Shown piece by piece: positions 1 to 37,447 of a stretch of DNA of 59,860 nt. Position numbers and translations under genes: made by a program. Source of the DNA: a virus. Taxonomy: Duplodnaviria > Caudoviricetes. How positions within the stretch are numbered: the first letter of the stretch is position 1; each line of letters opens with the position of its first letter. The DNA is taken from positions 1-59,860 of the IMG/VR virus record IMGVR_UViG_3300037760_000140. One strand, 5' to 3'. Under the pieces are notes generated by a model. That model worked only from the letters and a program-made list of their open reading frames with translations. It was not told the DNA's origin and made no database searches.

Positions 1-1
1 C

Positions 2-18
2 CCCGGAGGCGGCCACCC
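2..18. repeat. 17-bp terminal overlap (cccggaggcggccaccc), identical to 59844-59860; circular genome junction
   Basis: Exact match seen. Joining the ends rebuilds a hairpin (ggccgcccccggg...cccggaggcggcc) + C/A linker + RBS + GTG, like other intergenic regions here. Confidence 0.8.
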
Positions 19-37
19 CACCCGAACGGAGCACACC

Positions 38-277
38 GTGAGCCTCCCGGACGCCTACCACCGAGACGCCGCAGACCTCACCCCCGACCAGCTCGCCGCC
101 AGCGAACACCCCGCCGTCCGCGACTACGTCGCCGCCCGCCGCCGCGGTGACACCGACACCACCAGCCGCATCGTCGACGAGGTGCGCGCCCGATTCGCCA
201 CCCGCACCACCGACGGCTCCGAGGCCGCACAGATCATGCGCGCCTCCATGACCATCCCGTTCGGCGGTGCCGCATGA
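38..277 (+). CDS. hypothetical protein (79 aa)
   Basis: RBS ggag before GTG; ATGA coupling to next gene. Confidence 0.7.
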   Translation: MSLPDAYHRDAADLTPDQLAASEHPAVRDYVAARRRGDTDTTSRIVDEVRARFATRTTDGSEAAQIMRASMTIPFGGAA

Positions 278-657
278 GCAACGGCCCCGCACGGCACATC
301 GACAGCGCCGTTCAGGCGATCCGCCAGTTCAACCACGCCAGCCGCTCCGCCGGGCCTGAGTGGCAACGCCCCGGCGACACCTACAGCGCGATCGGCGCCC
401 TGTCGCAGCTGGCCGGGATGCTGCCGCAGGCCCTGGAACAGTCCATCCGCCCGGTCACCCGGACCCACGAGGACGGCCGCCTCGCCATCGACGGCGACGG
501 CGACCCGCAGGCCGCGGTGCGGTACCTCCGGGACGCACTGGCCGCAGCCGTCAAAGCCGCCGCCGACGTCGAATTCGCGGTCGGCCAGATGCACATCGAG
601 ACCAGCCCCATGAGCTACGACACCAGCGGCCCGTCCGAGTTCGAGGACGACGCGTGA
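274..657 (+). CDS. hypothetical protein (127 aa)
   Basis: Coupled at both ends; high GC3; protein-like composition. Confidence 0.75.
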   Translation: MSNGPARHIDSAVQAIRQFNHASRSAGPEWQRPGDTYSAIGALSQLAGMLPQALEQSIRPVTRTHEDGRLAIDGDGDPQAAVRYLRDALAAAVKAAADVEFAVGQMHIETSPMSYDTSGPSEFEDDA

Positions 658-827
658 ACTGGCTCCGCCGCGAGGCCACCAGCCGACTCGCCAGGTACGG
701 CTCCCTCGCCTGCCTCGGCGGGGCACTGGTGGCCGGGCACGCCGGGATCGCGATCGGCGCCGGGACGGTCGCGCTCACCTGCTGGACCATCCGGCCCTCG
801 CGCGCACGCCATCGCCGCACCCGCTGA
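654..827 (+). CDS. small membrane protein
   Basis: GTGA overlap; hydrophobic LACLGGALVAGHAGIAIGAGTVAL. Confidence 0.6.
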   Translation: MNWLRREATSRLARYGSLACLGGALVAGHAGIAIGAGTVALTCWTIRPSRARHRRTR

Positions 828-850
828 CACCCGACAGGAGACCCGCCACC

Positions 851-2104
851 GTGGACGCCCTCACCGCCATGGCATCCGCCATCCGCAACGCAGCGGCCGA
901 CAACACCGCCGTGGCGGCCGTCATCGCCCTCGCCATCGCCGCCATCATCTGCACCGCCACCTGGGGCGCCTGGCGAACCGCCAGCCGCGCCGCCCGCAGC
1001 GCCCGACACGCCCTCGACGGCACCCCCGCGTCGGTCGTCGTGGCAGCCGTGGCGGCCGTCGCCTGCACCGCCTACACCGCCGACACCTCCTGGCGGTTCG
1101 CCGCCCAGTACCTCGACATGGGCAGCACCGCCGAACGGGCCGCCATGTTCGCCGCCGCCGAACTCGCCCTGTTCGCCTGCGCACTCCTGGCCCGCCAGCA
1201 CATCCGCCAGACCGCCACCGACGACCAGCCCGGCAGGGCCGGCACCCCCGGACTCCTCGTCTGGGTCATCACCGGCGTCCAGGTGATCCCCGCGTTCGCC
1301 GTCTCCGGCACCGTCGGCGGCATCGTCCGCGCGTTTGTCGGCCCGTTCATGGCCGCGCTGCTGTGGCACCTCGCCATGGGCATCGAGATCCGCCACGCCC
1401 GGCCCGGAGCGCTCCGCTACGGCCTGCTCGCCACCATCGCCCGCGAACTCCGCGAACGCCTGCTGTCCTGGCTCGGCCTGGCCACCAGGGACCGCAGCGC
1501 CGAGCAGATCACCCGCGACCGGTGGACCGTGCGCGCCGTCACCTACGCCGCGCGCCTCGCCGATACCCCGCTCGGGGGAGGGTGGTGGACCACCCGCCGC
1601 CGGAGCAGGCTCGCCAGTCGTCTGTCCGTCGCCGTCGGCCGCGCCCAGGTCGGCGCCGAACCGGAGCAGCGCCGGATGCTGCTGGAGCTGCTGGCGGCCC
1701 GACGCCACGCCGCCACCCTCGCCACCGTCACCCTGCCATCCCCCTGGCAGGCCGACACGGCGCCCGACAGCGCCGCCGCCGAACTTCCCCCGGCCGACAG
1801 CGGCACCGGCGACACCCGCCACGACGCCCCGCCACCGCCCGACACCGCCGACAGCAGCGACGAGCAGCGCCCGCCAGAGCCGCCACAGGCACCCGCCACC
1901 TACGACAGCCCCGTCGATCGCGCGATCAGGCCGCTCTACGACACCGGCTGTCGCCCGACAACCGGACAGATGACGGCCGCCATGTCGGCCGCCGGCCTCA
2001 AGCCCGTCTCGTCCACCGCCCGCCAGAGCCGACAGCGCATCGAGCGCACCGAACCGCACCTCGCCGCGCTGCCGTCCGCCCTCCACGCCCGTACCGGGAG
2101 CTGA
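851..2104 (+). CDS. spdB: SpdB-like plasmid spread membrane protein with C-terminal extension (possible HTH)
   Basis: Segments CTAYTADTSWRFAA, AMFAAAELALFA, LVWVITGVQVIPA, VRAFVGP.MAALLWH, LAARRHA...LPSPW match my recollection of pIJ101 SpdB; several TM helices; RBS aggag. Confidence 0.8.
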   Translation: MDALTAMASAIRNAAADNTAVAAVIALAIAAIICTATWGAWRTASRAARSARHALDGTPASVVVAAVAAVACTAYTADTSWRFAAQYLDMGSTAERAAMFAAAELALFACALLARQHIRQTATDDQPGRAGTPGLLVWVITGVQVIPAFAVSGTVGGIVRAFVGPFMAALLWHLAMGIEIRHARPGALRYGLLATIARELRERLLSWLGLATRDRSAEQITRDRWTVRAVTYAARLADTPLGGGWWTTRRRSRLASRLSVAVGRAQVGAEPEQRRMLLELLAARRHAATLATVTLPSPWQADTAPDSAAAELPPADSGTGDTRHDAPPPPDTADSSDEQRPPEPPQAPATYDSPVDRAIRPLYDTGCRPTTGQMTAAMSAAGLKPVSSTARQSRQRIERTEPHLAALPSALHARTGS

Positions 2105-2110
2105 CCCGCC

Positions 2111-2326
2111 ATGCGAACCCTCATCCGTCTGGCTCGTCGGTGGCGGCGACAGCGTCGCCCTGACGGCCCGGTCACCGTCACCCGACTGCCCGGCCCCGAG
2201 CAGGCCCCGGCCGCCCCGCCGGCCTACCGCGTCCGACCCGGACTGCCGGTCCTGCCGCCCGACATCACCCGCCAGGACGAGCAGCACATCCGCTGCCGCC
2301 TCCGCCACCTCACCGGAGAGGAGTAG
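2111..2326 (+). CDS. hypothetical protein in spd-like operon
   Basis: Fills gap between neighbours; its 3' end carries the RBS of the next gene. Confidence 0.55.
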   Translation: MRTLIRLARRWRRQRRPDGPVTVTRLPGPEQAPAAPPAYRVRPGLPVLPPDITRQDEQHIRCRLRHLTGEE

Positions 2327-2329
2327 ACC

Positions 2330-3040
2330 GTGGCCGACGACTGGTTCGACCGATTCGTAGACCAGGACTGGGCAGGCGAGACCCAGACCCGAGACCGCCG
2401 AGACCGAGACCCCGGCGGGAGGATCCCCGCCCCCGGCGAGACCATCGACCTCCGAGACCTCCGAAGCGAGACCGGGCCGCGCGAGACCGAGACCCGAGAC
2501 CAGGCAGCGGAGCGCACCGAGACCGACCCGGTAGACCTCGGCAAGACCGCCAAGACCGCCAAGACCGACGGCGAGACCACCGAGACCGAGACCGACAGCA
2601 GCCCGGCCGAAGACGAGACCGAGCAAGACCAGCAGAGCGCCTACGACGCCATCGCCGACGCCCTCGTCGCAGCAGCCGGCCGGCTGCCCACCGCCGAAGA
2701 CGCCGCCGAAGCCCGGCGCGACATCGTCCGCAGCAAGCGCGCCCGCGCCACCCTCTACAACACCTCGGCCGCAGCCGCCGGACTCCTGCCCGCGGCGGCC
2801 GGAGCCGACTGGACCGCGCCCGGAACGGTCACCGGCTGGCTCGACAACATCGCCGCCGACGCCTCCATCGGCGCAGCGCTCATCCTCGGCACCGCCCTGG
2901 CCGGGATCGTCTGGGCCGTCTGGGACCGACGAACCCGCGCCCTGCCCCCCTGGGCCGCCTGGGCGTGCCGAATCCCCCTCGCGTCCGTGGTCGCCGGCGT
3001 CCTGCTGTGGGCGCCCGCCTGGCCCGCACTCAACCTCTGA
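2330..3040 (+). CDS. membrane protein with N-terminal ET/RD/KT repeat region
   Basis: RBS gaggag; C-terminal TM segments; repeats encoded by a CGAGACC array. Confidence 0.75.
   Translation: MADDWFDRFVDQDWAGETQTRDRRDRDPGGRIPAPGETIDLRDLRSETGPRETETRDQAAERTETDPVDLGKTAKTAKTDGETTETETDSSPAEDETEQDQQSAYDAIADALVAAAGRLPTAEDAAEARRDIVRSKRARATLYNTSAAAAGLLPAAAGADWTAPGTVTGWLDNIAADASIGAALILGTALAGIVWAVWDRRTRALPPWAAWACRIPLASVVAGVLLWAPAWPALNL
2377..2630 (+). repeat. oriented CGAGACC array (15 copies counted) plus AAGACC/TAGACC/CAGACC variants
   Basis: Counted directly in the sequence. Confidence 0.85.
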
Positions 3041-3056
3041 CCAGCAAGGACACGCC

Positions 3057-3533
3057 ATGTTCGCAGCACCCGCCACCACTCCCGCCGCCTGGTGGGACGA
3101 CGCCGAATACGCCCCCGGCGTCATGGACGGCGAATACATGGGCAGCCTCGGCGCCGGTGGCCTCGCCGTCGTGATGCTCCTCCTCCTCATCCTCGGCACC
3201 CGCGAGAAGGCCAAGCACCGGCTGAAGCCCATGGCCGCCCTGATCTGGGGCTTCGTCGCCATGACCGTCTGGATCGGAGCCGGCGGCATATGGTCCTACC
3301 CCTCCGACGTCCTGCGCGACGCTCTCGCACAGGCCACAGCCCTCGGAGTCGTCGGGAACATCGGCGCCGGCGCCATCGCGCTGGTCACGCTCGGCATCGT
3401 GTGGTTCGTCGATCTCAAGCCCCGCGCCGAAGCCATCATGGGCATGGTCATGGGCGTGACCTGGGCCGCCGCAGGCGGCATCTGGGGCGTGCCCGTCCTG
3501 ATCGTCGCTCAGATCACCGGCGGCCTCGCATGA
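3057..3533 (+). CDS. multi-pass membrane protein
   Basis: RBS aagga; about 4 Gly-rich hydrophobic helices. Confidence 0.8.
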   Translation: MFAAPATTPAAWWDDAEYAPGVMDGEYMGSLGAGGLAVVMLLLLILGTREKAKHRLKPMAALIWGFVAMTVWIGAGGIWSYPSDVLRDALAQATALGVVGNIGAGAIALVTLGIVWFVDLKPRAEAIMGMVMGVTWAAAGGIWGVPVLIVAQITGGLA

Positions 3534-4249
3534 CCGAGCGCCCGACCTGGGTCACCGCGGCCACCGACGCCATCGAGCAGTTCCTCACCGGGGCGCACCG
3601 CACCGCCACTTGGTGCTGGCACGCGGGACACGTCTACCTGCGGACCTGCCCCGTTAAGGGCTGCCGCTGGTACTGGCGGACCATCGGATACGGCACCTGG
3701 AGCACGGCCGCCGCCTTTCCGCTCGCGGTCGGCGGAGTGCTGCTGGTGTCGGCCGGTCCGCTCGCCTGGGGCATCGCCGGGGCCACCTTGGTCGCGGTCT
3801 GCTGGATCGCCGGAGAAGACGAAGACGAGGAGGAGGAACCAGAGGCGGAGGAGGAGCCTGCCCCGGCGGCCCCGATCGACCCCCTGCTTGCGTTCACCGC
3901 GCAGCTCATCGGCAATGCCCGCGGCATCCACCTCACCGCGCTCCTCACCGCTCTCCACCGCGCCGGCGTAGACCCCCGCTTCGACGCCACCGAGCTGCGC
4001 ACCGTGCTGGCCGAACAGGGGGTTGCCTGGAGGCCATCCGTGCGCGCCCCGAAAGGGGCTGTCCCGGGCGCGGCCGAAAGGGTCGCTCAGGGGGTGCACC
4101 GGGAGGATCTGGAGGCCGTGATCGGCCCCTTCCCTGTCCCCTCTTCCGAGCCCCTTCCAGGTCCTGTAGCTACCGCCACTACAAGCGGCGTGACCTGCGA
4201 TGTAGCGGATCTGACTACGGCCGTAGCTACGGGACGTAGCAGCGCCTGA
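3530..4249 (+). CDS. membrane protein with acidic linker and putative C-terminal winged-helix domain
   Basis: ATGA coupling; 2 TM helices, EDEDEEEE linker, then LRTVLAEQGV...QGVHREDL. Confidence 0.7.
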   Translation: MTERPTWVTAATDAIEQFLTGAHRTATWCWHAGHVYLRTCPVKGCRWYWRTIGYGTWSTAAAFPLAVGGVLLVSAGPLAWGIAGATLVAVCWIAGEDEDEEEEPEAEEEPAPAAPIDPLLAFTAQLIGNARGIHLTALLTALHRAGVDPRFDATELRTVLAEQGVAWRPSVRAPKGAVPGAAERVAQGVHREDLEAVIGPFPVPSSEPLPGPVATATTSGVTCDVADLTTAVATGRSSA

Positions 4250-4335
4250 CGGCTGCCGGTGCGCCCCTGCCGGGGGCGTGCCGGGAGCCGGCCAGACCGG
4301 ATAGACCGGACCCACCATCTACCCCTGGAGGACCC

Positions 4336-4569
4336 ATGACCGATACGCCCACCGAGGGCGCGCCGATCGACCGTGACGCAGCCGCGCGAGTCCACTACGT
4401 CGACCGGCGTGTCCGCCGCCTGGCAGAGGCCCGCTGGAGGCTCACCACCGGCGGTTCGCACGCGGACTGGCTCCAACTCGGCAAGGACAACCCCGAGGCC
4501 CTGATCCAGGAAGGGCGGGACTGGCTGCGTGCCGCCGTCGCGGCCGGGCTGCTATCGCCACCCAGCTGA
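4336..4569 (+). CDS. hypothetical protein
   Basis: RBS ggagga. Confidence 0.7.
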   Translation: MTDTPTEGAPIDRDAAARVHYVDRRVRRLAEARWRLTTGGSHADWLQLGKDNPEALIQEGRDWLRAAVAAGLLSPPS

Positions 4570-4652
4570 CCCACCACCAGCCCGGGGCGGCCTCGCCTGC
4601 CAGCAGCCGCCGCCCCGGGCCCCATCCCGACGCATCGAGACAGGACCCGATC

Positions 4653-4781
4653 ATGCTCCGCAAGCTGATGCCCATCAAGCCCCGCACCAAGACCGAACCG
4701 CCCGCCGGGAAGTGGGGCAGCACCTACGACGCCGAGCGCGGCGGATGGGTATCCGACAAGCCCGCCAAGCCGAAGCGCTGA
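4653..4781 (+). CDS. small basic protein (MLRKLMPIKPRTKTEPPAGKWGSTY...)
   Basis: Read by hand; RBS agga; below the ORF-track size cutoff. Confidence 0.5.
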   Translation: MLRKLMPIKPRTKTEPPAGKWGSTYDAERGGWVSDKPAKPKR

Positions 4782-4838
4782 CCGACCGGGGCCCGCACCG
4801 TGCTGGTGCGGGCCCCCCGACCGCGAGAGGATGACGGC

Positions 4839-5255
4839 ATGACCGACGAGATCGCCGCGTTCGTGCGGGCGCGGCTGGACGAGTGGGAGGCGGAGGCGCG
4901 AGCCACCGGCGACACCCACTGGAATGCGATGACGGAGGAAACCCCTGACGGGGAGAACATCTTCTACACCGTCGAAACGACAGGGCCAGGTCGGCGCGCC
5001 GTTGCTGAGGCGCCAGGCACGCGAGAGCGTGATTACGCCCTCGTTGAACACATCGCCGCCCACGACCCCGCGCGGGTCCTGCGGGAGGTGGCGGCGCTGC
5101 GGGTCGTGGTGGATCAGCACACCGGACGGCACGGGAAGTACGTGTGCCACGAATGCCTGCAAGACCTGTCCGCCCCGAACTCCTGCCACACCCTCCGCCA
5201 CCTCGCCGCGATCTGGTCGGACCACCCGGAGTACCGGGCGGAGTGGCGGCCGTAG
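4839..5255 (+). CDS. DUF6221-like protein
   Basis: AFVRARLDE...HIAAHDPARVLREV...DHPEYRAEWRP pattern. Confidence 0.7.
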   Translation: MTDEIAAFVRARLDEWEAEARATGDTHWNAMTEETPDGENIFYTVETTGPGRRAVAEAPGTRERDYALVEHIAAHDPARVLREVAALRVVVDQHTGRHGKYVCHECLQDLSAPNSCHTLRHLAAIWSDHPEYRAEWRP

Positions 5256-5356
5256 CCCGTCAACTGTCGGTGGTGGCTGGGAGAATGGGGAGGACAGACC
5301 CCGGCGGGTGCGCGAACACCCCCGGGGCATGGCCGACCTGACGAGAGCAGACCGAC

Positions 5357-5941
5357 ATGACCCAAGCTACCGTCCGCTGCGGATGCGGACGCACCATGGC
5401 CATCGACGGACGCCGGCCCCGAGGCTCCTACCGCTGCGGATGCGGAGTGCGGGTCATCGTGGAGGCGCCTCAGCCGGGGGGCGAAGATCGAATCTGCTGG
5501 TACCGCGAATGCAGGATGCTTGCCGTCACCAGCGACCCCCTACGCTTCTGCGCCGAGCACCAACGCGAGGCAGCCGAAGCTCTTGCTCACCTCACCGGGA
5601 GGGCAACGCTGGAGCACTGGCTCAATGCGGGCGGGAGCACGCGGCGGCATCAGTTCGGCTCGGCGATCGCCAGGCGAGAGCAACCGGGCTCCGTGGTGTA
5701 CTTCATGCGCCGAGAGAGAATGATCAAAATCGGGTTCACTGGCAACCTTCGCCACCGGGCCGTCTCACTGAACGCCACGGTCCTTGCTCACTTTCCGGGC
5801 GGTCGGGCGGAGGAGGCAGAGCTACATCGCCGCTTCGCTGGCCTTCGGCGATACGGGGAGTGGTTCGAGCCGGGCCGCGAGCTTCTGGATTACATCAACG
5901 AATGCCGTCGGGCCACCGGGAGGCCCTCGCTCGCCCACTGA
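5357..5941 (+). CDS. GIY-YIG / T5orf172-like protein with N-terminal Cys motifs
   Basis: VVYFMR..MIKIGFT...EAELHRRF...GEWF motifs. Confidence 0.75.
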   Translation: MTQATVRCGCGRTMAIDGRRPRGSYRCGCGVRVIVEAPQPGGEDRICWYRECRMLAVTSDPLRFCAEHQREAAEALAHLTGRATLEHWLNAGGSTRRHQFGSAIARREQPGSVVYFMRRERMIKIGFTGNLRHRAVSLNATVLAHFPGGRAEEAELHRRFAGLRRYGEWFEPGRELLDYINECRRATGRPSLAH

Positions 5942-5950
5942 CTCGCTTGC

Positions 5951-5979
5951 TTGACCGCGATCACCTGCGATGTCACAAT
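5951..5979 (+). promoter_or_regulatory. sigma70/HrdB-type promoter TTGACC-N17-CACAAT
   Basis: Near-consensus hexamers with 17-bp spacer. Confidence 0.55.
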
Positions 5980-6006
5980 GCCCTCGTGGCACACATGTGC
6001 CCGAAC

Positions 6007-6033
6007 GAAGCCCCGGCCCCGGTCGGGGCTTTC
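6007..6033 (+). terminator. hairpin aagccccg...cggggctt just downstream of the promoter
   Basis: Inverted repeat followed by a short T run. Confidence 0.5.
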
Positions 6034-6052
6034 GCGCGTCAAGGGGGTGTCT

Positions 6053-6283
6053 GTGCACGTCGCCGACGCCCGCCCCGTGGACCTCATGACCGCCGACGAG
6101 ATCGAGCAGGAGTGGGGCGTCCCCGGCCCCGTGCTGCGGCAGTGGGCCGCCAGGGGGAAGATCGCCCGCTACCCGGGCCGCTGGCGGATGCACGGCACCA
6201 TGTACGCCCGCCAGCACGTGCAGCCCCTCGCAGAGCAGTACAAGGCCGTTCCGCAGCGCGCGCCGAAGACCCGCGCCGCCTGA
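6053..6283 (+). CDS. small MerR-like HTH DNA-binding protein
   Basis: MTADEIEQEWGVPGPVLRQWAARGKI; start uncertain. Confidence 0.6.
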   Translation: MHVADARPVDLMTADEIEQEWGVPGPVLRQWAARGKIARYPGRWRMHGTMYARQHVQPLAEQYKAVPQRAPKTRAA

Positions 6284-6388
6284 AAGCCGGGCGCGCTCCG
6301 TCCTCCGCGTTGAGCGCCCACGGCTCCCTGCCCCCTGGCGGCGGGCGGGGAGCCAGCCAAGCCGCCACACACCGTCTGGAGACCGCGC

Positions 6389-6658
6389 ATGGCCAAGTAC
6401 CGCTACATCGTCACTTACTGCGACGAAGGCCCGGAGGACAGGGTGGTGGGCACCAGCCTCATCACCCGTGACAACGAGGTGCGCATCGCCAACGGCGACG
6501 CCATGGTCCTCTTCGTGCCAGCGATCAACGTCCGCAGCATCCGCAGCGTCCCCATCGAGGAGGCTGACGACGGGGGCGACGAGCCGGAACCGGAGCGCGA
6601 ACCGCTCACCGCCCGGGACCTGCTGGCTCGCCGCGACGCCGCGAAGCTGAAGGCCTGA
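6389..6658 (+). CDS. hypothetical protein
   Basis: RBS ggag; high GC3. Confidence 0.7.
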   Translation: MAKYRYIVTYCDEGPEDRVVGTSLITRDNEVRIANGDAMVLFVPAINVRSIRSVPIEEADDGGDEPEPEREPLTARDLLARRDAAKLKA

Positions 6659-6661
6659 GCC

Positions 6662-6904
6662 ATGACCGAGCCCCTCGGCGCAGTCATCGAGATCATCGAG
6701 CGCGGCGCCAAGACGGATGGCACTGCTGGCCAAAGCGTCATCGTCCCCGATGACGTCCGCATCAACGGCCACTCTCTCCTGATGGACACGGAGAACCCCG
6801 TGATCGTCCACGAGATGAAGGTGGACAAAGGCAGCCTTGTGAGCGTCACCCTGACCTTGCTGGTGCGCCGCGTGTCGATCCGCGCCGAACACGACACGGA
6901 CTGA
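6662..6904 (+). CDS. hypothetical protein
   Basis: Operonic spacing; beta-rich sequence. Confidence 0.7.
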   Translation: MTEPLGAVIEIIERGAKTDGTAGQSVIVPDDVRINGHSLLMDTENPVIVHEMKVDKGSLVSVTLTLLVRRVSIRAEHDTD

Positions 6905-7024
6905 CGACGCCCCCAAGACTCCGTGCCGGGCGGCTCAGACATCGTGCGGGTGCTACCCGCCCGGCGCGGTCACAGGTCCGTCACGCCGCAGACACCAGGC
7001 CAACCCGCCTGCGATGCTGCCCCG

Positions 7025-7366
7025 ATGAGACGCACCCGCAGCACCACCGTGACCGCCATAGCCGCCGCCCTGCTCGCCCTCACCGCCTGCGGAAGCGGAG
7101 ACGAGCCCGAGGAGGAGACGGTGGACTACGACGTCATCACCGAAGAGCTACCCGACGGCGGCATCGGGAGGGTAGACCTCCTCATGCCCGACGCCACCGT
7201 TGAGACCGCCGAGCAGGCGATCCGCGACTACGCCGACAGCATCGACGGGCCCACAGCCGTCACCATCGCCGTCGTCCGCGAGGCCGACGCAGCCGTCATC
7301 GTCTGCCGAGCCGACTGGCCCGACCTCGACGACACCATGAACTGCCCCGACCCCGGCGGCAGCTGA
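7025..7366 (+). CDS. acidic lipoprotein
   Basis: Basic N-terminus, hydrophobic core, lipobox LTAC. Confidence 0.75.
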   Translation: MRRTRSTTVTAIAAALLALTACGSGDEPEEETVDYDVITEELPDGGIGRVDLLMPDATVETAEQAIRDYADSIDGPTAVTIAVVREADAAVIVCRADWPDLDDTMNCPDPGGS

Positions 7367-7453
7367 CTACCCCGATCGCCCGCCGCTGATCCCGGCGGGA
7401 AGGGAGCCCCGACGTCTCCAGGCGCCGGGGCTTCCGCACACCTGGAGGACGAG

Positions 7454-7870
7454 ATGAAGCGAGCAATTGAGGTCGGCGTCATTGGGCACCATGTCGCCAC
7501 CAACGTCCTCCGCCTCAGGAAAGTGCGTGGCCTAACAGTCAAGTCCCTGTCGGCGAGGCTCGCCGAGTGCGGTCGGTCAATTCCGTCCTCCGGGCTCACG
7601 CGGATCGAACTCGGTGAACGACGCGTTGATGTCGATGACCTTGTGGCTCTGGCTGCCGTGCTGGGTGTATCGCCCGCAGCCCTGCTGCTGCCGCTGGACG
7701 ATGAACCGGCCAAGACGGTTCAGATCACCGGGGCGAGGGAGGTGCCCGCCGACACCGCGTGGGCGTGGCTGAACAACGAGCGGCCCCTCCGCCTTCCGGA
7801 CGGGGACCAGCGGACCGCCATGCTGGAGTACCAGCTTTACAGCCTCCCGCCCGGACGGAGAACAGCATGA
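7454..7870 (+). CDS. XRE-family HTH regulator
   Basis: NVLRLRKVRGLTVKSLS...LTRIELGERRVDVDDLVALAAVLGV. Confidence 0.85.
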   Translation: MKRAIEVGVIGHHVATNVLRLRKVRGLTVKSLSARLAECGRSIPSSGLTRIELGERRVDVDDLVALAAVLGVSPAALLLPLDDEPAKTVQITGAREVPADTAWAWLNNERPLRLPDGDQRTAMLEYQLYSLPPGRRTA

Positions 7871-7919
7871 GCCGCCTCCAGTAGTCGTAGCAGCCCAATA
7901 GGTAACCCCGGGGGTGGTC

Positions 7920-8336
7920 ATGCCGAGCAGGCCACCCCGGGTATGCGCAGGATGCCGGGGCACAGTACCCCCCGGCGAGAGGTGCCCCCGGTGCACCCCC
8001 GGGGACAGGCAAGCCACCGACCGGGCGCGCGGCAACAGCCACCAACGCGGCTACGGTCGCAGACACCGGGGCAGGTTCAGGGGCGCAGTGCTCGCCCGCG
8101 ATCCCGTGTGCACCTGCGACCAGGAGTGCCGGCGGGGTGCCCTGGTGTTGCACGGACCTGGCGACTGCGACGTGCTGGCAACGGTGGCCGACCACCACCC
8201 AAAGACCCGCCGGGAGCTAGTGGCGGGGGGCCTGGACCCTGACGACGCGCAGCACGGACGAGGACTGTGCAAGGGATGCCACGACAGGCACACTGCACGG
8301 TCGTCGCCTGGTGGATGGGCGGACCGTCGGGGGTAG
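7920..8336 (+). CDS. HNH endonuclease (packaging-associated)
   Basis: CxxC motifs, ATVADHH, LCKGCHDRHT; lies just upstream of TerS. Confidence 0.85.
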   Translation: MPSRPPRVCAGCRGTVPPGERCPRCTPGDRQATDRARGNSHQRGYGRRHRGRFRGAVLARDPVCTCDQECRRGALVLHGPGDCDVLATVADHHPKTRRELVAGGLDPDDAQHGRGLCKGCHDRHTARSSPGGWADRRG

Positions 8337-8430
8337 GGGCGTCAGCATCACCATATCGGACATACCGGGCGACCGCCCAGGTGGTGAGCGAGATCGCGCC
8401 GCCCGTTTTGCCCTTTTGTGACAGACCGTG
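8337..8430. other. candidate cos/packaging site
   Basis: Intergenic between HNH and TerS, the usual cos position in HNH-terminase phages; exact site not identifiable. Confidence 0.4.
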
Positions 8431-8442
8431 ACGGAGGTGACT

Positions 8443-8901
8443 ATGGGTGTTCGTGGCCCCCTCAAGATCCCTAAGCACCTTCAGGCCGTGCCCGATCCGG
8501 GCGCCGCTGCAGGGACCATGGCGGAGAAGGTCGCCCCGTCCGCCCCGCCCCGTCCGCCAGGCTTCCCCGAAGGCGACCGGGAGATGGTCGAGCTGTGGGA
8601 CGCGATCGTCCCCGAGCTGGACCGCGCCGGACTACTCACCCGGGCTGACGGGGCGACGGTGGAGCTGGCCATCCGCCACTTCCTCGCCGCGCGCAAGGCG
8701 GGCGACGCGCTCCAGGCCGGCGACGTCGTGCTGACCGATGCGGCGCACGGCGGGACGGCGAAGAAGAACCCGGCCGGTGCTGAGATGCGTAGCCAGTCGC
8801 AGCTGTTCCTGGAGTACGCCAAGCAGCTCGGGATGTCGTTCGCGGCGCGAGCGCGGATCCCGGCGAAGGATGAGGCGACGGAGGCGAACCCCTTCGCATG
8901 A
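8443..8901 (+). CDS. terS: terminase small subunit (P27 family)
   Basis: KKNPA...LGMSFAARARI motif; position; RBS ggagg. Confidence 0.85.
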   Translation: MGVRGPLKIPKHLQAVPDPGAAAGTMAEKVAPSAPPRPPGFPEGDREMVELWDAIVPELDRAGLLTRADGATVELAIRHFLAARKAGDALQAGDVVLTDAAHGGTAKKNPAGAEMRSQSQLFLEYAKQLGMSFAARARIPAKDEATEANPFA

Positions 8902-8915
8902 GGGGGTGATCCGTC

Positions 8916-10658
8916 GTGGCGGTGAAGGTGCCCGGGAAGCGGGTGCTCGACAAGCTCAAGCTCAGCCCCGAGGTGGCGCACTACCTGCTGTCGCGAGGGT
9001 ATGAGCTGCCGACCTGTCCGCCGCAGCACAAGACGCCGGAGCCCCGCGAGGTGCCGGGCGCATACTTTGATCCGCGCCGCGTGGACCGGGTAGTTGACGC
9101 GTTCGCGCGGCTGCGGCATACGAAGGGCAAATGGGCAGGACGCCCCATAGCGCTGCGGCCGTGGCAGATCGCGTACCTGATCGGCCCGACCTACGGGTGG
9201 GTGCGGCCGACGGCGGACGGCCGGACGGCGCGGATCATCCAGACGCAGTACCTGGACATCCCGCGCAAGAACGCGAAGACGACGGTCGGCGGCGGGCAGT
9301 GCGTATATCTGACGTGCGCCGACGGCGAGGAGGGCGCGGAGGTCTACGCGCTGGCGACGCGGAAGGACCAGGCGCGTCTCTGTTTCGATCCGGTGCGGCT
9401 GCTGGCGACGAAGGCCCCGGACCTGAAGGGGCACGTCAAGCCCCTCCGGGACAAGATCCAGCACCCTAGGTCCGGCAGCTTCTTCTCGGTGATGTCGTCG
9501 GCCGGCGACGCGATGCACGGCACGAGCCCGCACGCGGCGTTCGTCGACGAGCTGCACCTGCACAAGACCCGGGATCTGATCGAGGCGGTGGAGACCGGGA
9601 CGGGCGCGCGCGAGCAGCCGCTCATCATGTACGCCACGACGGCGGACTCCGGCGCCCCGTTCTCTCCGTATGCGGAGATCCGGGAGTACTGCGAGAAGCT
9701 GGCCCGCGGCGCACTGGTCGATCCGACTTTCTACGGAGTGGTGTTCGCGGCGGACAAGCAGGACGATCCGTTCGCAGCGGAGACGTGGCTGAAGGCCAAC
9801 CCGGGCCTGGCGGCCGGCGATTCGCCGACGATGGAGAGCATGGAGAAGGCCGCGGCGAAGGCCCGGCAGAACCCCATCGAGCTGGCGTCCTTCCTGCGGC
9901 TGCGACTGGGCATCCGCACGAAGCAGGAGAGCAAGTACATCTCCCTCGCCGAGTGGGACCGGAACGCCGGCATGGTGGACCGCGAGGCTTTGCGGCGCCG
10001 GGAGTGCTACGGCGGCCTGGACTTGGCGGCCACGAGCGACCTGTCGGCGTTCTGCCTGGTGTTTCCGGAGGGGAAGCCCGGCGACGGCACGGAGGGCTAT
10101 CAGGCGCTGTGGCGGCTGTGGACTCCGGAGGCGAACCTGACGCGGCTGCGGGACCGCACGGCTGGGGCGGCGGATGTGTGGGTGCGGCAGGGCTGGCTGA
10201 CGGTCACCGACGGGGACGTCATGGACTACGGCCACATCCGTGAGGCGATCAATGCGGACCGCGACGACTTCAATGTCGTGGAGGTTGCCTACGACCCGTG
10301 GAACTCGACGCAGCTCATCACGGATCTCGTCGGGGACGATGCGCCGATGGTGGAAATGCGGCAGGGCTACCGGTCGATGTCGCCGCCATTGAAGGAGCTG
10401 GCCAGGCTGCTGCGGCAGGGAACGCCGGAGGTGCCTCTGCTGCGGCACGGCGGGAACCCGGCGATGCGCTGGATGATCGACAACCTGACGGTGGCCACCG
10501 ACCCGAGCCTGAATGTGAAGCCGGACAAGAAGACGAGCGCCGACAAGATCGACGGCGTGGTAGCGCTGGTCATGGCGCTGGACCGGGCTCGGAACCGGGC
10601 GCCGGTGCGCAAGAGCGCCTACGAAGACGACGACGAGGACGACCAGATGGTCGGCTGA
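8916..10658 (+). CDS. terL: terminase large subunit
   Basis: Walker A IPRKNAKTT, Walker B FVDELH, nuclease GLDLA, KIDGVVA. Confidence 0.95.
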   Translation: MAVKVPGKRVLDKLKLSPEVAHYLLSRGYELPTCPPQHKTPEPREVPGAYFDPRRVDRVVDAFARLRHTKGKWAGRPIALRPWQIAYLIGPTYGWVRPTADGRTARIIQTQYLDIPRKNAKTTVGGGQCVYLTCADGEEGAEVYALATRKDQARLCFDPVRLLATKAPDLKGHVKPLRDKIQHPRSGSFFSVMSSAGDAMHGTSPHAAFVDELHLHKTRDLIEAVETGTGAREQPLIMYATTADSGAPFSPYAEIREYCEKLARGALVDPTFYGVVFAADKQDDPFAAETWLKANPGLAAGDSPTMESMEKAAAKARQNPIELASFLRLRLGIRTKQESKYISLAEWDRNAGMVDREALRRRECYGGLDLAATSDLSAFCLVFPEGKPGDGTEGYQALWRLWTPEANLTRLRDRTAGAADVWVRQGWLTVTDGDVMDYGHIREAINADRDDFNVVEVAYDPWNSTQLITDLVGDDAPMVEMRQGYRSMSPPLKELARLLRQGTPEVPLLRHGGNPAMRWMIDNLTVATDPSLNVKPDKKTSADKIDGVVALVMALDRARNRAPVRKSAYEDDDEDDQMVG

Positions 10659-10670: not shown

Positions 10671-12728
10671 GTGGGTCTCCGTAGCGGCTGGCTGCGTGTC
10701 AAGCAGTGGTTTCCGTTCGCGCGTCCGTCAGCCCGCACGTGGCAGCGTCCGGGCTGGACGTGGCAGGGCATGGATCAGGCCCTGGTGCTGGGCATGGACC
10801 ATGCGGAGCTGTGGCGGACCCAGCCGCATCTGCGGACCGTGGTCGATTTCGTGGCGCGGAACGTCGCGCAGTTGGGGCTGCACACGTTCGACCGCGTGTC
10901 GGATTCCGACCGGCGACGGGTGACAGGCCAGGGAGTGGCTGCTCTGCTGCGGCGCCCGAATCCGGACGTCACCATGTATGAGCTGGTGTATGCCACGATC
11001 GGCGATCTGGCACTGCACGACCGGGCGTTCTGGTGGGTGCGGCGCGACGCGGACGCGGCCTCTGGCTGGATGATCCGGCAGATCCCCGCTTCGTGGGTGA
11101 CGTCGGGCCAGGACGGCACGGTGTTCGCCGCTGGGAAGTGGATCGTGCAGCCGCCCGCGACCGCCGGTTCGGTGGAGCCGGTCGAGATCCCCGCCGCGCA
11201 GATGATCACCTTCCACGGCTGGAACCCGGACGACCCGAGTACCGGGGCGTCCCCGGTGCGGGCGCTGAAGCTGATCCTGTCGGAGCAGATCCACGCCTAC
11301 ACCTACCGCGAGCAGGTATGGCAGCGGGGCGGGCGGGCGCCGATGGTGATCGAGCGACCGGCGGACGCTCCGGACTGGGGCACGAAGGGCCGCGAGCGAT
11401 TCCGGAAGGACTGGCGCTCGCAGCTCACCGGATCGGGCCCGGAGGCCGGCGGGACGCCGATGCTTGAGGACGGCATGAAGCTCGTCAAGGTCGGCTTCTC
11501 CGCGCGGGAGGACGCCTTCGTCGAGGCGGCCACGCTGTCGTTGACGACGGTGGCCAGCGTGTATCAGGTCAATCCGACGATGGTCGGCGTGCTGGACAAC
11601 GCCAACTACAGCAACGTGCGCGAGTTCCGGCGGGCGCTGTACGGCGACTCGCTCGGGCCGTGGCTGACGATGTTCCAGGACCGCATCAACACCTTCCTCC
11701 TGCCGATGCTGGACGAGCCGGAAGAGCGGTACGTCGAGTTCAACATCGGCGAGAAGCTGCGAGGGTCTCCGGAGGAGCAGGCACAGGCGTTCCAGGCGGC
11801 GGTGGGCCGGCCGTGGATGACCGCCGATGAGGCTCGCGGGCATCAGAACATGCCGGCGCTTGGTGGCGACGCGGAGCAGCTGGTGACGCCGCTGAACGTC
11901 CTGGTGGGCGGGCAGGCGTCGCCGCAGGATTCGGCGCCACCCGGCTCGGGCGCCGGGCCGCCGCGGGAGACGAGCGCGGTGGTGCGGGGAAAAGCGCTGA
12001 AGGCGCTGCGCCGGGCCGACCCGGTGCGGGCTGACGCGTATGAGCGGCAGTACGAGCAGCGCCTTGGCCGCTGGTTCGGGGACTTCGCCGATGCGGTACT
12101 CGCCGGGTATGGCGGGGCGAAGCGCGGCAGGCCGCGCGTCAAGGCTGCTGAGGATTTCGTGGACCGGGAGGCGTGGCAGGAGTCGCTGGCGACGCTGCTG
12201 CTGACACTGGGCCTGGCGACGTCGACGGCTGCGGCCGAGGATCTGCTGGAGCAGATCGGCCTGCCGCCGGAGGACTACAACGCGGACGCGACGGTGGCGT
12301 GGCTGACGGCGATGGCGGCCGGTGTCGCGGAGGGCATCGTCGGGGCGACGCTCGCCGAGGCCGACGAGGCGCTGGCCGATACGGACCGCACCGATGAGGA
12401 CGGCGAGCCGATGTCCGCTGAGGCGCGGCTGGCCGCTGCTCTCGCGGTGGCGGCGGCTGTGCGGGTGCCGGAGATCTCCGCCTCGCAGGTGACATCCATG
12501 TCGGGCTTTGGGCAGACGGAGGCGGCCCGGGGTGCGGGCGGTGAGCCGACGAAGACATGGCGGACTACGTCCAGCAGCCCGCGGCCGGCGCATCAGCGGA
12601 TGGACGGCGAGACGGTCGGCCTCGACGAGAAGTTCTCCAACGGCGCGATGTGGCCGGGTGACTCCCGGCTGGATGACGCGCAGCGCGCTGGATGTAAGTG
12701 CGCAGTCGAGGTCGCAATCGAGTTCTGA
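10671..12728 (+). CDS. HK97-type portal protein fused to a C-terminal MuF-like minor head domain
   Basis: Portal motifs LLRRPNP, NYSNV, WMTADEAR; C-terminus KTWRT...RPAH..MDGETV...GCKC. Confidence 0.9.
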   Translation: MGLRSGWLRVKQWFPFARPSARTWQRPGWTWQGMDQALVLGMDHAELWRTQPHLRTVVDFVARNVAQLGLHTFDRVSDSDRRRVTGQGVAALLRRPNPDVTMYELVYATIGDLALHDRAFWWVRRDADAASGWMIRQIPASWVTSGQDGTVFAAGKWIVQPPATAGSVEPVEIPAAQMITFHGWNPDDPSTGASPVRALKLILSEQIHAYTYREQVWQRGGRAPMVIERPADAPDWGTKGRERFRKDWRSQLTGSGPEAGGTPMLEDGMKLVKVGFSAREDAFVEAATLSLTTVASVYQVNPTMVGVLDNANYSNVREFRRALYGDSLGPWLTMFQDRINTFLLPMLDEPEERYVEFNIGEKLRGSPEEQAQAFQAAVGRPWMTADEARGHQNMPALGGDAEQLVTPLNVLVGGQASPQDSAPPGSGAGPPRETSAVVRGKALKALRRADPVRADAYERQYEQRLGRWFGDFADAVLAGYGGAKRGRPRVKAAEDFVDREAWQESLATLLLTLGLATSTAAAEDLLEQIGLPPEDYNADATVAWLTAMAAGVAEGIVGATLAEADEALADTDRTDEDGEPMSAEARLAAALAVAAAVRVPEISASQVTSMSGFGQTEAARGAGGEPTKTWRTTSSSPRPAHQRMDGETVGLDEKFSNGAMWPGDSRLDDAQRAGCKCAVEVAIEF

Positions 12729-12745
12729 GGCCCGAAGGGGGCATT

Positions 12746-13576
12746 GTGCTGATCAAGGATGCGCCCGCGCTGCGGGTCAAGGTGACGGACGTCGACGCGG
12801 ACGGCGGCGGGGAGGGCGAGTTCACCGCGCTGGTGAGCGTCTTCGGCAACGTCGACTCCTACGGCGATGTGGTGCAGCCGGGCGCGTTCGACCGCACCCT
12901 TAAGGAGTGGTCGGCCTCCGGCTACCCGATCCCCGTGTACTGGGGCCACAACCTGTCCGATCCGGACTACAACATCGGGCACGTCGTCGAGGCGGTCGAG
13001 ACCGATCGCGGCCTTCAGGTCCGCGCCCAGCTCGACATGGACAGCCCGAAGGCGCCGCAGGTCTACCGCCTGCTGAAGGGCGGCCGGGTCAAGGAGTTCA
13101 GCTTCGGCTACAGCGTGCGGGACGCCGGGTGGGGCGAGAAGGATGACCGCGAGGTGTACGAGCTGCGGGACATCGACCTCTACGAGGTGTCGGTGGTACC
13201 GGTCGGCGCGAACCCCGCCACGGAACTCCAGACCGTGAAGGCCCATGCGGAGCGCACCGGGCGTGCCGCCCGTGCCCTGGAGGGCGCGAAGGCGGGCAGG
13301 GTGCTGTCCGCGAAGAATGAGACCGCGCTGCGTGAAGCGCGCGATGAGCTTGCCGCCGCGATCGACACGATCGACGGCGTGCTGTCCGCCCTCGACCCGG
13401 GCGAGGAAGAGCCGGGCGAGGACGGCGAGAAGAGCCAGGAGACGGATCCGGCCACGGAGCAGGAGCCGGCCGCCGACGAGGAGCCCGACGGGGCCAAGTC
13501 GGACGTGCCCATGCCTGACTTCGCCGCCGACCCACTGGCGGCCCTGATCGATATCGAGATGAGGAGTGCGCAGTGA
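12746..13576 (+). CDS. HK97-family prohead protease
   Basis: SVFGNVDSYGDVVQPGAF, WGH, FSFGY, EVSVVPVGANPAT. Confidence 0.92.
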   Translation: MLIKDAPALRVKVTDVDADGGGEGEFTALVSVFGNVDSYGDVVQPGAFDRTLKEWSASGYPIPVYWGHNLSDPDYNIGHVVEAVETDRGLQVRAQLDMDSPKAPQVYRLLKGGRVKEFSFGYSVRDAGWGEKDDREVYELRDIDLYEVSVVPVGANPATELQTVKAHAERTGRAARALEGAKAGRVLSAKNETALREARDELAAAIDTIDGVLSALDPGEEEPGEDGEKSQETDPATEQEPAADEEPDGAKSDVPMPDFAADPLAALIDIEMRSAQ

Positions 13577-14790
13577 ATCTGCGTGAGCAGCGTGAGCAGG
13601 CGCTGAAGGCCGCCCGGGAAGTAGCGGTCAAGGCGCGGGACGAGAACCGGTCGCTCAGCGAAGACGAGCAGGTCGAGGTGAAGGCCCGGCTGGCGGAGGC
13701 CGACGACCTCGGCGAGAAGATCAAGCAGTCCGACGAGGCGGACGCGCTGATGAAGCGTGCCTTCACCGTGCCGGACGGGAAGCCGTCCGGCGGCGGCGGG
13801 CAGCGGCAGGGCGTGAAGGCGAAGCTGGAGGCGGACTCCGCCTATCAGTCCGCGATGATCGCCGCGAAGTCCCGCACCCGCTTTTCCCAGCGGAGTGTGG
13901 AGTTCGAGAGCAAGGACTTCGAGACGGGCGGCCCGGCCGGCGGCCTGGTGCAGACCCAGTACGGGCGGGTGGTGCCGGAGCCGCTGATTCGGCCTACGGT
14001 CGCCAGTCTGTTCGCGCAGGGCACCATGTCGGCGACGACCCTCACCTACTACGTGGAGGGTCCGGCGACCGGCGACTTCGAGGCTGTACCCGAGGGCGGC
14101 CTGAAGCCCGCGATCGACTTCAGTTTCGACCCCGAGGTCGAGACCCTGTCGAAGATCGCCGGGCACACGAAGATCGACGACGAGGCGTTTCAGGACGTCC
14201 CCTACCTGGTGTCCGTCATCGAAGGGCGGCTGCTGATCCGGCTGACCCTGGCGGAGGAGCGGCAGCTCCTGTCCGGCGACGGAACCGGCGCCAACCTGCT
14301 CGGCATCCTGAACCGGCCCGGCATCCTCAGCGAGGCGTCCGTCAGCGTGGACGACAACCTGGACGCGATCTTCCGCGCGATGACGGAGGTCGAGGACGGC
14401 AGCTTGCTGCCCGTGGACGCGGTCGTGGTCAACACCCGCGACTACCAGACGATGCGGCTGTCCCGGGACGCCAACGAGCAGTACTACGGCGGTGGTCCGT
14501 TCACCGGCGCCTACGGCAACAGCGGCTTCACCCTGGGGCCTGGCCTGTGGCAGCAGCGCACGGTCGTGACTTCCGCGATCCCGCAGGGCACCGCCCTGGT
14601 GGGGGCGTTCGGAGTCGCCGGGCAGGTCCTCCGCAAGGGTGGCGTCTCCCTGGAGATGACCAACAGCAACGAGGACGACTTCATCCACAACAAGGTCACG
14701 CTGCGGGCGGAGGAGCGGCTGATGCTGGCCGTGTACCAGCCGTCGGCATTCTGCGAGGTGGAGCTGGTCGGTGCCGGCTCCGGCTCCTGA
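13573..14790 (+). CDS. major capsid protein (HK97 fold)
   Basis: N-terminal coiled-coil delta domain, EGGLKP, LLSGDG, DFIHNKVTLRAEER. Confidence 0.93.
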   Translation: MNLREQREQALKAAREVAVKARDENRSLSEDEQVEVKARLAEADDLGEKIKQSDEADALMKRAFTVPDGKPSGGGGQRQGVKAKLEADSAYQSAMIAAKSRTRFSQRSVEFESKDFETGGPAGGLVQTQYGRVVPEPLIRPTVASLFAQGTMSATTLTYYVEGPATGDFEAVPEGGLKPAIDFSFDPEVETLSKIAGHTKIDDEAFQDVPYLVSVIEGRLLIRLTLAEERQLLSGDGTGANLLGILNRPGILSEASVSVDDNLDAIFRAMTEVEDGSLLPVDAVVVNTRDYQTMRLSRDANEQYYGGGPFTGAYGNSGFTLGPGLWQQRTVVTSAIPQGTALVGAFGVAGQVLRKGGVSLEMTNSNEDDFIHNKVTLRAEERLMLAVYQPSAFCEVELVGAGSGS

Positions 14791-37407: not shown

Positions 37408-37431
37408 GATGCCCCCAGGCAGCTATACCGG

Positions 37432-37447
37432 TGGAACACATGTTCGA
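37432..37447. promoter_or_regulatory. actinobacterial LexA (SOS) box tggaacacatgttcga
   Basis: One mismatch to TCGAAC-N4-GTTCGA. Confidence 0.7.

Follow-up and report, generated by a model that had tools for sequence, protein, structure and literature searches.

A virus record of 59,860 bp from IMG/VR (IMGVR_UViG_3300037760_000140; linear class, CheckV completeness 80%), analysed over its full length and called the window in what follows, carries a block of seven genes (274-4249) on its + strand, 5' of the terminase genes. The + strand carries almost all genes from position 1 to about 28.3 kb. Within the block the genes are tightly packed, either overlapping by 4 nucleotides (nt) or separated by gaps of 3-24 nt; their third-position GC content (GC3) is 0.85-0.93, the G+C content of the window being 68-75%, and no terminator-like sites were found in positions 1-9000. 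A Kyte-Doolittle scan predicted membrane helices in five of the seven products. An earlier note on this DNA, made from the sequence alone, had spoken of an operon of membrane proteins, and both the packing of the genes and the predicted helices agree with that description. None of the eight proteins encoded in 274-4569 matched a Pfam, PHROGs or NCBIfam family above the cut-off. The weak matches of the gene at 3057 to Cation_efflux (E 7e-4) and phrog_38677 (E 2e-3), and of the gene at 274 to Helicase_C_3, were taken as products of chance or composition.

The first complete gene of the block, g274 (274..657; + strand, like the other six), codes for a soluble protein of 127 amino acids (aa). It is followed by a gene for a 57-aa product with one or two predicted membrane helices (654..827, + strand), which begins with GTG in a 4-nt overlap with the end of g274 and for which no homologue was detected in 29 viral loci (E<=1e-5) or in the 109 loci described below (E<=1e-4). 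The third gene, g851 (851..2104, + strand), encodes 417 aa. About five membrane helices are predicted within residues 14-180; beyond them a conserved helical cytoplasmic part extends to about residue 300, followed by a disordered linker rich in Pro and Asp and by a C-terminal three-helix domain at residues ~350-410. In an alignment of 30 sequences the conserved core comprised residues ~60-300 with 89 invariant columns, and the linker and the C-terminal domain were variable. The AlphaFold2 model had a mean predicted local distance difference test score (pLDDT) of 68, with values of 89-96 for residues 351-410, where three helices span 354-400. This model, which is only moderately confident, gave no Foldseek match in the PDB at E<=0.001 among the 62 obtained at E<=10.

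Between g851 and the next gene lies a candidate gene, a 71-aa open reading frame rich in Arg and Pro (2111..2326, + strand, GC3 0.85), for which no significant similarity was found in Pfam, PHROGs, NCBIfam, the viral loci or the plasmid comparisons. g2330 (2330..3040, + strand) codes for 236 aa; the N-terminal half is acidic, the C-terminus has two membrane helices, and a conserved motif, DRRTR...P..AW..R.PLA, lies in the region of the helices. The product of g3057 (3057..3533, + strand) is a glycine-rich membrane protein of 158 aa with four helices, and the alignment of its family has 21 invariant columns. The last gene, g3530 (3530..4249, + strand), encodes 239 aa: long N-terminal helices, of which a hydrophobic hairpin at 57-96 is part, are followed by an acidic linker and, at 118-198, by a winged-helix-like domain. 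An AlphaFold2 model built with 21 sequences had a pLDDT of 73 overall and of 83-94 for residues 111-170, with the topology H-b-H-H-b-b. Its top Foldseek matches in the PDB were nearly all winged-helix structures (the histone H1 globular domain, ORC/Cdc6, MarR, PadR and BlaI, with FtsK gamma at rank 34), the best having an E value of only 0.059. With moderate confidence, then, the model points to g3530 being a membrane-tethered winged helix.

Relatives of the block were found on plasmids. By tblastn, g3057 hit nine plasmid records and none of 50,697 phage records. Five of the nine, small Streptomyces plasmids, were examined: pSNA1 (NC_002149), pNKL (NZ_CP007575), pSTS1 (NZ_CP020701), CP109521 and NZ_CP108620. 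In blastp comparisons g3057 matched proteins of 157 aa in CP109521 (E 9e-24), 151 aa in pNKL (E 1e-21) and 150 aa in pSNA1 (E 2e-5), and g2330 matched proteins of 234 aa in pNKL (E 6e-16), 242 aa in pSNA1 (E 1.6e-11) and 326 aa in CP109521 (E 6e-9); tblastn added g2330 matches in pSTS1 (E 2e-13) and NZ_CP108620 (E 4e-8). In all five plasmids the g2330-like gene lies directly 5' of the g3057-like gene, and the g2330-like proteins likewise have two C-terminal membrane helices and the motif DRRTR...P..AW..R.PLA. The gene that comes next on the plasmids corresponds to g3530: the g3530 family (up to 20 sequences) aligned with it by hhalign at 96.8% (E 2.9e-10) over 113 columns, which take in the acidic linker together with the second membrane helix before it and the C-terminal domain after it. 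Counterparts of g3530 have 266 aa in pNKL, 365 aa in CP109521, 288 aa in pSTS1 and 300 aa in NZ_CP108620, and stand in the same order in all four plasmids that have this third gene; pSNA1 is without it. g274 also has a relative, in the long operon of pNKL (7954-8649), with 52% identity over 122 aa (blastp E 5e-33; tblastn E 9e-31), and corresponds to the C-terminal half of the 231-aa protein encoded there. Taken together, these matches show that three consecutive phage genes, and one more, have plasmid homologues.

The plasmid operon, which has no name of its own, resembles the phage block in further respects. In both, genes for a protein with a two-helix anchor, a four-helix protein and a hairpin/winged-helix protein follow each other in this order (the first two in pSNA1); one extra gene is common to the phage and pNKL; both include a gene for a polytopic membrane protein whose C-terminal domain is helical, on the plasmids a helix-turn-helix (HTH); and both are without a match above the cut-off to the FtsK/TraB family PF01580 (see below). 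The HTH-bearing membrane proteins are of more than one kind. pSTS1 (E 6e-21) and NZ_CP108620 (E 2.5e-33) encode DUF2637 proteins several genes downstream of the pair, and the first gene of the pSNA1 operon, CAB62260, was named 'SPDB2 protein' by its depositor and shows a weak, sub-threshold DUF2637 match together with an HTH. The gene order in pSNA1 is SPDB2 (309 aa), 55 aa, 242 aa and 150 aa, and that in the window g851 (417 aa), 71 aa, 236 aa, 158 aa and g3530; the candidate gene at 2111-2326 thus stands at the position of the 55-aa gene. On our reading g851 fills the slot of the pSNA1 SpdB2, being an analogue of it or else a relative whose distance puts it beyond detection.

There are also differences between the two operons. 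The large membrane protein of the phage, g851, is from another family than DUF2637/SPDB2. The plasmid g2330-like proteins have a Cys-rich stretch, CEHP...CP.CD, that is missing in the phage g2330. The phage block is followed by terminase genes, whereas the plasmids have a Rep gene. Finally, the plasmid operons are flanked by a regulator gene of the GntR type and the phage block is not. In pSNA1, CP109521, NZ_CP108620 and pSTS1 the operon is divergent from a gene for a GntR or UTRA-domain regulator, that of pSNA1 having 46% identity to pIJ101 KorA. Overall, to judge from the similarities and their order, the phage block is very probably homologous to the plasmid operon.

Two observations concern the plasmid material and the regulators themselves. 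In CP109521.1 (26,859 bp) the annotation recurs identically 13,429 bp further on, which suggests that a plasmid of about 13.4 kb is present there as two copies joined head to tail. The - strand open frame 29963-31414, in the lysogeny region of the window, has its GntR-type winged HTH (29996-30163; 30 bits, above the cut-off) at the C-terminus, which is unusual, GntR regulators normally having an N-terminal HTH; its likeness to the pSNA1 regulator is weak (E 0.062). A tblastn match of 59295-59612 to the GntR region of CP109521, which reached E 4e-4 against a very small database, was not trusted, the protein not having the look of an HTH protein.

The earlier note had gone further, and had stated that 851-2104 matches the spread protein SpdB of the Streptomyces plasmid pIJ101 across its whole core. 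This did not hold. The BLAST and profile comparison that the note had itself proposed gave no significant similarity: BLASTP of g851 against SpdB (NC_001387, 291 aa) returned E=25, and the family profiles aligned by hhalign at 0.4% (30 against 20 sequences) and 0.18% (114 against 20). The C-terminal domains alone gave 0.35%. Widening the comparison did not change the picture, the best values being E=0.16 for the eight proteins of the block region against nine pIJ101 proteins and E=0.064 for the pIJ101 proteins against the window by tblastn. In precomputed Pfam assignments PF27080 (SpdB_N) and PF27079 (HTH_SpdB_C) were present in 120 of the 120 SpdB relatives listed and in none of the 120 g851 relatives listed, 14 of the latter having PF12728 (HTH_17). 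Both families are large, with at least 1796 relatives of g851 and 1580 of SpdB among the candidates scored, and SpdB of the pIJ101 type was confined to 12 plasmid records, no phage record having it.

What g851 and pIJ101 SpdB have in common is their build, N-terminal membrane helices and a small C-terminal helical or HTH domain, and their occurrence on mobile elements of Streptomyces; a language-model search, useful as a lead only, also placed an SpdB cluster at rank 20 (0.86, 177 shared features). They differ in that no sequence similarity is detectable in either domain and in that the SpdB gene lies directly downstream of tra and spdA, whereas the phage block is without a Tra or TraB neighbour. 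It is therefore extremely improbable that g851 is an orthologue of pIJ101 SpdB, and at the level of detectable sequence similarity this literal reading of the earlier note was rejected. As for its broader description, a plasmid-type, Spd-like module without TraB, the sharing with plasmids stands, by way of g2330, g3057 and g3530, as does the absence of TraB (see below), but the homology of 851-2104 to SpdB does not. One SpdB record is unexpected: NZ_CP061945.1 (5,284 bp), labelled Pseudomonas sp. SK2, contains pIJ101 SpdB and Tra at 99.7-99.8% identity, and is probably a pIJ101-derived vector or a contaminant rather than a Pseudomonas plasmid.

SpdB2 and DUF2637 were tried as families for g851 with a similar outcome. 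DUF2637 (PF10935) had no match at E<=1 in g851 or in the six frames of the window, and none in 30 relatives. An SpdB2 family profile was made from 50 of 332 cluster representatives that HMMER had found starting from the pSNA1 'SPDB2 protein' (CAB62260), and g851 aligned with it by hhalign at only 0.14% and 0.28%. The hidden Markov model (HMM) of this family had no match at E<=1 in six frames of the window, while it found gp25 of phage phiC31 at E 8e-41; phmmer with g851 against 151 SpdB2-family representatives had none at E<=1, and the C-terminal domain of the window's g851 aligned with that of SpdB2 at 3%. Among the leads, UniRef labels two g851 relatives 'DUF2637 domain-containing', and in the language-model search the nearest neighbours of g851 were unnamed actinobacterial clusters, followed by clusters in which 10% of members have DUF2637 (0.91), 56% HTH_SpdB_C, with DUF2637 also represented (0.88), and 70% HTH_SpdB_C (0.86).

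The predicted layout of g851, a polytopic N-terminal membrane domain, a Pro-rich linker and a C-terminal helical domain, may resemble that of SpdB2; within the g851 family the C-terminal part is variable in kind. HTH_17 was found at the C-terminus of 6 of 30 relatives scanned, and in 16 of 109 relatives the SpdB2-family HMM weakly detected the C-terminal HTH (E 9e-6 to 4e-3); some members of the g851 family therefore have an HTH of the SpdB2 type joined to another membrane domain. The converse is seen in Streptomyces phage OnionKnight (OQ938575). OnionKnight has four consecutive 'membrane protein' genes, gp57-gp60, at its right genome end (37093-38967), beside packaging genes. gp57 resembles g851 in the linker and in the domain at the C-terminus, with 39% identity over 139 aa (pairwise E 2e-14, database E 6e-3), and has a membrane domain unrelated to that of g851; gp59 and gp60 had no match to the g3057, g2330 and g3530 profiles at E<=10.

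The spread genes of the Streptomyces venezuelae plasmid pSVH1 are among the systems nearest to the block. There, SpdB2 is an oligomeric membrane protein with four membrane helices that binds double-stranded DNA and peptidoglycan and forms pores, and the operon spdB3-spd79-spdB2, beside the GntR gene traR, is required for pocks and intramycelial spread (PMC4447253). By description rather than by sequence, the two are alike in being operons of small and polytopic membrane proteins, of which the one lies beside a GntR regulator gene and the other has plasmid relatives so placed; the DNA-binding SpdB2 has 409 aa and g851, with its predicted DNA-binding-like domain, 417 aa, and for both a role in passing DNA through the mycelium has been or is here proposed (PMC4447253). 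They are unlike in that pSVH1 works with the FtsK-like TraB and the phage has none, and in that SpdB2 begins with a coiled coil (1-99) ahead of its four membrane helices whereas g851 begins with membrane helices (PMC4447253).

The idea that phages might use such proteins was in print by 2015. Referring to the genome papers of phiC31 and VWB, Thoma et al. noted that certain actinophages have putative SpdB2 homologues, and suggested that these serve to spread phage DNA (PMC4447253). They name no gene; we take the protein meant to be most likely phiC31 gp25. Like the block studied here, gp25 is related to a spread protein of plasmids and is carried by a temperate siphophage of Streptomyces, one for which no TraB gene is annotated. 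Unlike g851, it is a true member of the pSNA1-SPDB2 family (see above), of which the window has none, and phiC31 has no homologue of g851, g2330, g3057 or g3530. What we add are the collinearity of three genes between phages and plasmids in which no FtsK-type gene is detectable, the g851 family with its three alternative neighbourhoods, and the exchange of C-terminal domains among membrane domains that are not related; in the literature searched, which did not cover subscription papers, no earlier description was found of any of the three.

The g851 family is very large and resides mostly in Streptomyces chromosomes; 29 loci were found in IMG/VR and at least 574 in species-representative genomes. 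On plasmids its relatives have 37-44% identity over residues 15-304, the carriers including pRVR2, which is of the TraB type, and a plasmid of the type IV secretion system (T4SS)/relaxase type; on an 18-kb linear plasmid the relative adjoins a gene for an FtsK/DUF87 ATPase. The gene neighbourhoods were tallied in 109 loci, the 29 viral ones and 80 of the genomic ones. A gene caller with a GC3 filter missed the g851 gene in 31 of the 109, and the tallies were therefore made by six-frame searches with HMMs built from clusters of neighbouring genes (named with Pfam; matches above 50 bits).

Three contexts stood out. A relaxase of the MobA/VirD2 type followed g851 in 38 of the 109 loci. In 31, a gene for an FtsK/SpoIIIE-family ATPase of about 700 aa lay about 2 kb downstream, eight of these loci also showing a large terminase within the 10-kb flank. 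A large terminase only was present in 16 loci, and the remaining 24 had neither motor, relaxase nor terminase, many of them with flanks that end early; one further locus gave a weak FtsK match of 36 bits. The FtsK-like and the relaxase context never occurred together. Relatives of g851 are thus regularly coupled to DNA-moving enzymes. The window itself belongs to the class with a terminase only.

The typical order in the relaxase context is WhiB, g851, a 71-aa gene, the relaxase (~574 aa), two unnamed genes and, on the opposite strand, SPDY/DUF317. This conserved chromosomal arrangement (e.g. L019, L086, L055 and L080) has the look of a mobilisable or integrative element that is widespread in Streptomyces. 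In the FtsK context the order is Prim-Pol/DUF927, SNF2 helicase, further genes, g851, one to three small genes, the FtsK-like gene, a 66-aa gene, HNH, terminase, portal and protease. Many Streptomyces prophages thus have a membrane-anchored FtsK-like ATPase between a g851 homologue and the HNH/terminase genes, 2.2-2.6 kb downstream of the former in, for example, L007, L017, L024, L025, L039, L084 and L099. An HMM of the phage FtsK-like proteins had no match at E<=10 in pIJ101, pRVR2 or NZ_CP108772, and pIJ101 Tra had none at 1e-5 in the 29 viral loci by tblastn; by these searches the FtsK-like proteins that follow g851 relatives are not close to plasmid TraB.

The pair g2330/g3057 follows g851 in 7 of the 109 loci (L028, L073, L104, L031, L032, L041 and L005). 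These relatives came from HMM searches of the 109 loci; scanning viral contigs for patterns of g3057 or g2330 singly had found none. An FtsK-like gene or a relaxase was present in none of the seven loci with the pair and in 69 of the other 102 (Fisher one-sided p=0.0006, for loci that are not phylogenetically independent). For the FtsK-like gene alone the value was p=0.089 over the 109 loci, kinship again overstating their independence.

That the phage encodes no FtsK/TraB, as the earlier note had it, was borne out: PF01580 had no match in the six frames of the window, nor did an HMM made from 33 of the phage FtsK-like proteins. The window contains the whole interval from g851 to the terminase genes, in which relatives keep their FtsK-like gene. 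Only one called gene of the window, 49411-50397 (328 aa), shows the strict Walker A pattern; it has no Pfam match at E<=0.001 and has relatives in two of the loci, L013 and L033. The plasmids with the module gave the same result. PF01580 was found in none of pSNA1, pNKL and CP109521, and in neither pSTS1 nor NZ_CP108620 above the cut-off, these two giving one sub-threshold match of 11 bits, 20 kb from the operon; all three controls (pIJ101, pRVR2 and NZ_CP108772) were positive. The strict Walker A pattern was absent from frames of at least 60 aa in pSNA1 and pNKL and was confined in CP109521 to a Rep-like protein of 687 aa. pSNA1, pNKL, CP109521 and pSTS1 are in this respect plasmids that combine a KorA-like GntR or UTRA gene and spd-like membrane genes without a PF01580 match. 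Since the five plasmids with the module are without a PF01580 match above the cut-off as well, the absence of the motor is a trait of the module wherever it was examined, and not a loss peculiar to the phage.

Taking into account these observations, the best explanation we can offer is that the block is a membrane operon shared by phage and plasmids, not a copy of pIJ101 spdB, and that it acts as a DNA handler in the manner of the Spd proteins; we put this forward tentatively, rating it a little below an even chance. Its products would come together as a complex in the cytoplasmic membrane, with two domains that are tethered to the membrane and probably bind DNA. Such a complex may act like the Spd apparatus of plasmids and hold, or pass on, the DNA of the element at the membrane or at the cross-walls of the hyphae, during the lytic or a plasmid-like phase, and, there being no FtsK-type motor of its own, perhaps with the help of a host translocase or of one that is co-resident. 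The models are consistent with this, as both g851 and g3530 are predicted to carry small, confidently modelled, DNA-binding-like domains on membrane anchors. The spread-like function taken by itself, to which analogy with the plasmid systems points, is possible yet somewhat doubtful.

A number of observations weigh against this reading. No relationship of g851 to SpdB or SpdB2 could be demonstrated (hhalign 0.14-0.4%; C-terminal domains 0.35% and 3%, respectively), and DUF2637 is found neither in the window nor in the 30 g851 relatives. The 'spread' label rests on the name that a depositor gave to one pSNA1 gene and on positional analogy with pSVH1. The whole module is rare even among relatives, as the seven loci in 109 indicate, and neither g3057 nor the core of g851 turned up among the 50,697 isolated-phage records. 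The phage block has no GntR gene beside it, the sole GntR-type HTH of the window above the cut-off being that at 29996-30163, on the - strand and 26 kb away; this search was bounded by position 1, the DNA 5' of it lying outside the record. Finally, in the characterised plasmids spread needs TraB, and neither the phage nor the five plasmids have a PF01580 match above the cut-off. Because the motor is absent in the phage and in all five plasmids, the module may do something other than move DNA.

Phage membrane proteins without an enzymatic domain are often exclusion factors. The proteins of the block could accordingly serve to block other phages, conjugative plasmids or integrative and conjugative elements of actinomycetes (AICEs), or could slow the host in the manner of 'kil', and not move the DNA of the phage at all. 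Rather unlikely as we consider it, a role in exclusion or interference or of the 'kil' type is a serious rival because neither the phage nor the plasmids with the module encode a motor, and it is in keeping with the regulation of the plasmid counterparts, which are under a KorA-like GntR repressor as are the kil and spd genes in pIJ101 and pSVH1 (PMC4447253). The earlier note, too, had listed the blocking of a co-resident TraB. The position of the block argues the other way. It lies in the + strand run into the terminase genes and not beside the integrase and repressor genes at 29-37 kb, and its remoteness from these means that expression in the prophage is not indicated. Two membrane-tethered DNA-binding-like domains would also be atypical of exclusion proteins, and the pairing of g851 relatives with an FtsK-like ATPase or a relaxase points to the handling of DNA.

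Two other roles were weighed as lesser rivals than exclusion. The proximity of terminase genes, which lie a few kb 3' of g851 in 24 of the 109 loci and in the window, together with the DNA-binding look of the modelled C-terminal domains, would suit a membrane anchor that tethers replicating or concatemeric phage DNA and hands it to the terminase, without any movement between compartments. This we regard as quite improbable, since the g851 family also occurs in the 38 relaxase loci and on plasmids without a terminase, and since g2330, g3057 and g3530 are common to plasmids of the rolling-circle type, which package nothing. The pores formed by pSVH1 SpdB2 suggest, secondly, an accessory function in permeabilising the envelope, by which lysozyme would reach the wall and virions be released or the wall remodelled. 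It is very improbable that the block serves this purpose: it lies more than 20 kb from the post-tail region, the usual place of lysis genes, the predicted HTH and winged-helix domains would have no place in a holin, and the carriage of the genes on plasmids speaks against a role in lysis.

The preferred reading, a Spd-like handler of DNA, can be extended to the other elements described above, and in this extended form it is clearly unlikely. Elements of Streptomyces would then share a motor-independent membrane apparatus for double-stranded DNA, through which phage DNA crosses the cross-walls. Its core would be the triad g2330-g3057-g3530 together with an interchangeable polytopic membrane-HTH protein, which might be a member of the g851 family, of DUF2637/SpdB2 or of SpdB; its users would be temperate phages and those small plasmids in which neither an FtsK-type protein nor any other strict P-loop protein is encoded. 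The g851 family could in that case be an adaptor that couples the membrane to an FtsK-like ATPase (31 loci), a relaxase (38) or a terminase (16), and infection or lysogeny might spread inside the mycelium without an extracellular step.

The results suggest that phages and plasmids of filamentous bacteria may handle DNA with the same membrane machinery. How DNA travels from one compartment of a Streptomyces mycelium to another is understood in part, and up to now for TraB plasmids only; that phages may use the same route was suggested in 2015. Three handles on these questions emerge from the comparison: three collinear genes common to phages and to plasmids without a detectable FtsK-type gene; a very large, unannotated family of membrane proteins, that of 851-2104, whose neighbourhood switches between FtsK-like ATPase, relaxase and terminase; and natural variants with and without a motor. 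Should the module prove to move or to anchor DNA, models of plaque formation, of the spread of lysogens and of horizontal transfer in filamentous actinomycetes would change. If it is an exclusion system, it would be a new one, aimed at the entry or the spread of DNA in hyphae.

The remainder of the window identifies the carrier of the block. PHROGs matches were obtained for the small terminase (8428-8901), the large terminase (8916-10658), the portal (10671-12728), the head protease (12698-13576), the major head protein (13573-14790), the major tail protein (16828-17442) and the tape measure (18265-20463), as well as for an integrase (35645-37189, - strand) and a repressor-type regulator (32551-33789). 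From its head, tail and terminase genes the window is therefore that of a siphophage, which is what the earlier note had called it, and from its integrase and repressor genes that of a temperate one; its hosts are taken to be Streptomyces-like bacteria.

Two further genes of the phage may be mentioned. In the tail region, 22551-26327 encodes a protein of 1258 aa that matches phrog_5313 (E 1e-194) and in which an internal stretch matches a phosphodiesterase PHROG (E 8e-32). Just 5' of the terminase region, 6923-7366 encodes a protein of 147 aa with a lipoprotein-like signal, a hydrophobic stretch followed by Cys; its product has 58% identity to that of the gene at the same place in locus L022, whose head genes are 70-88% identical to those of the window.

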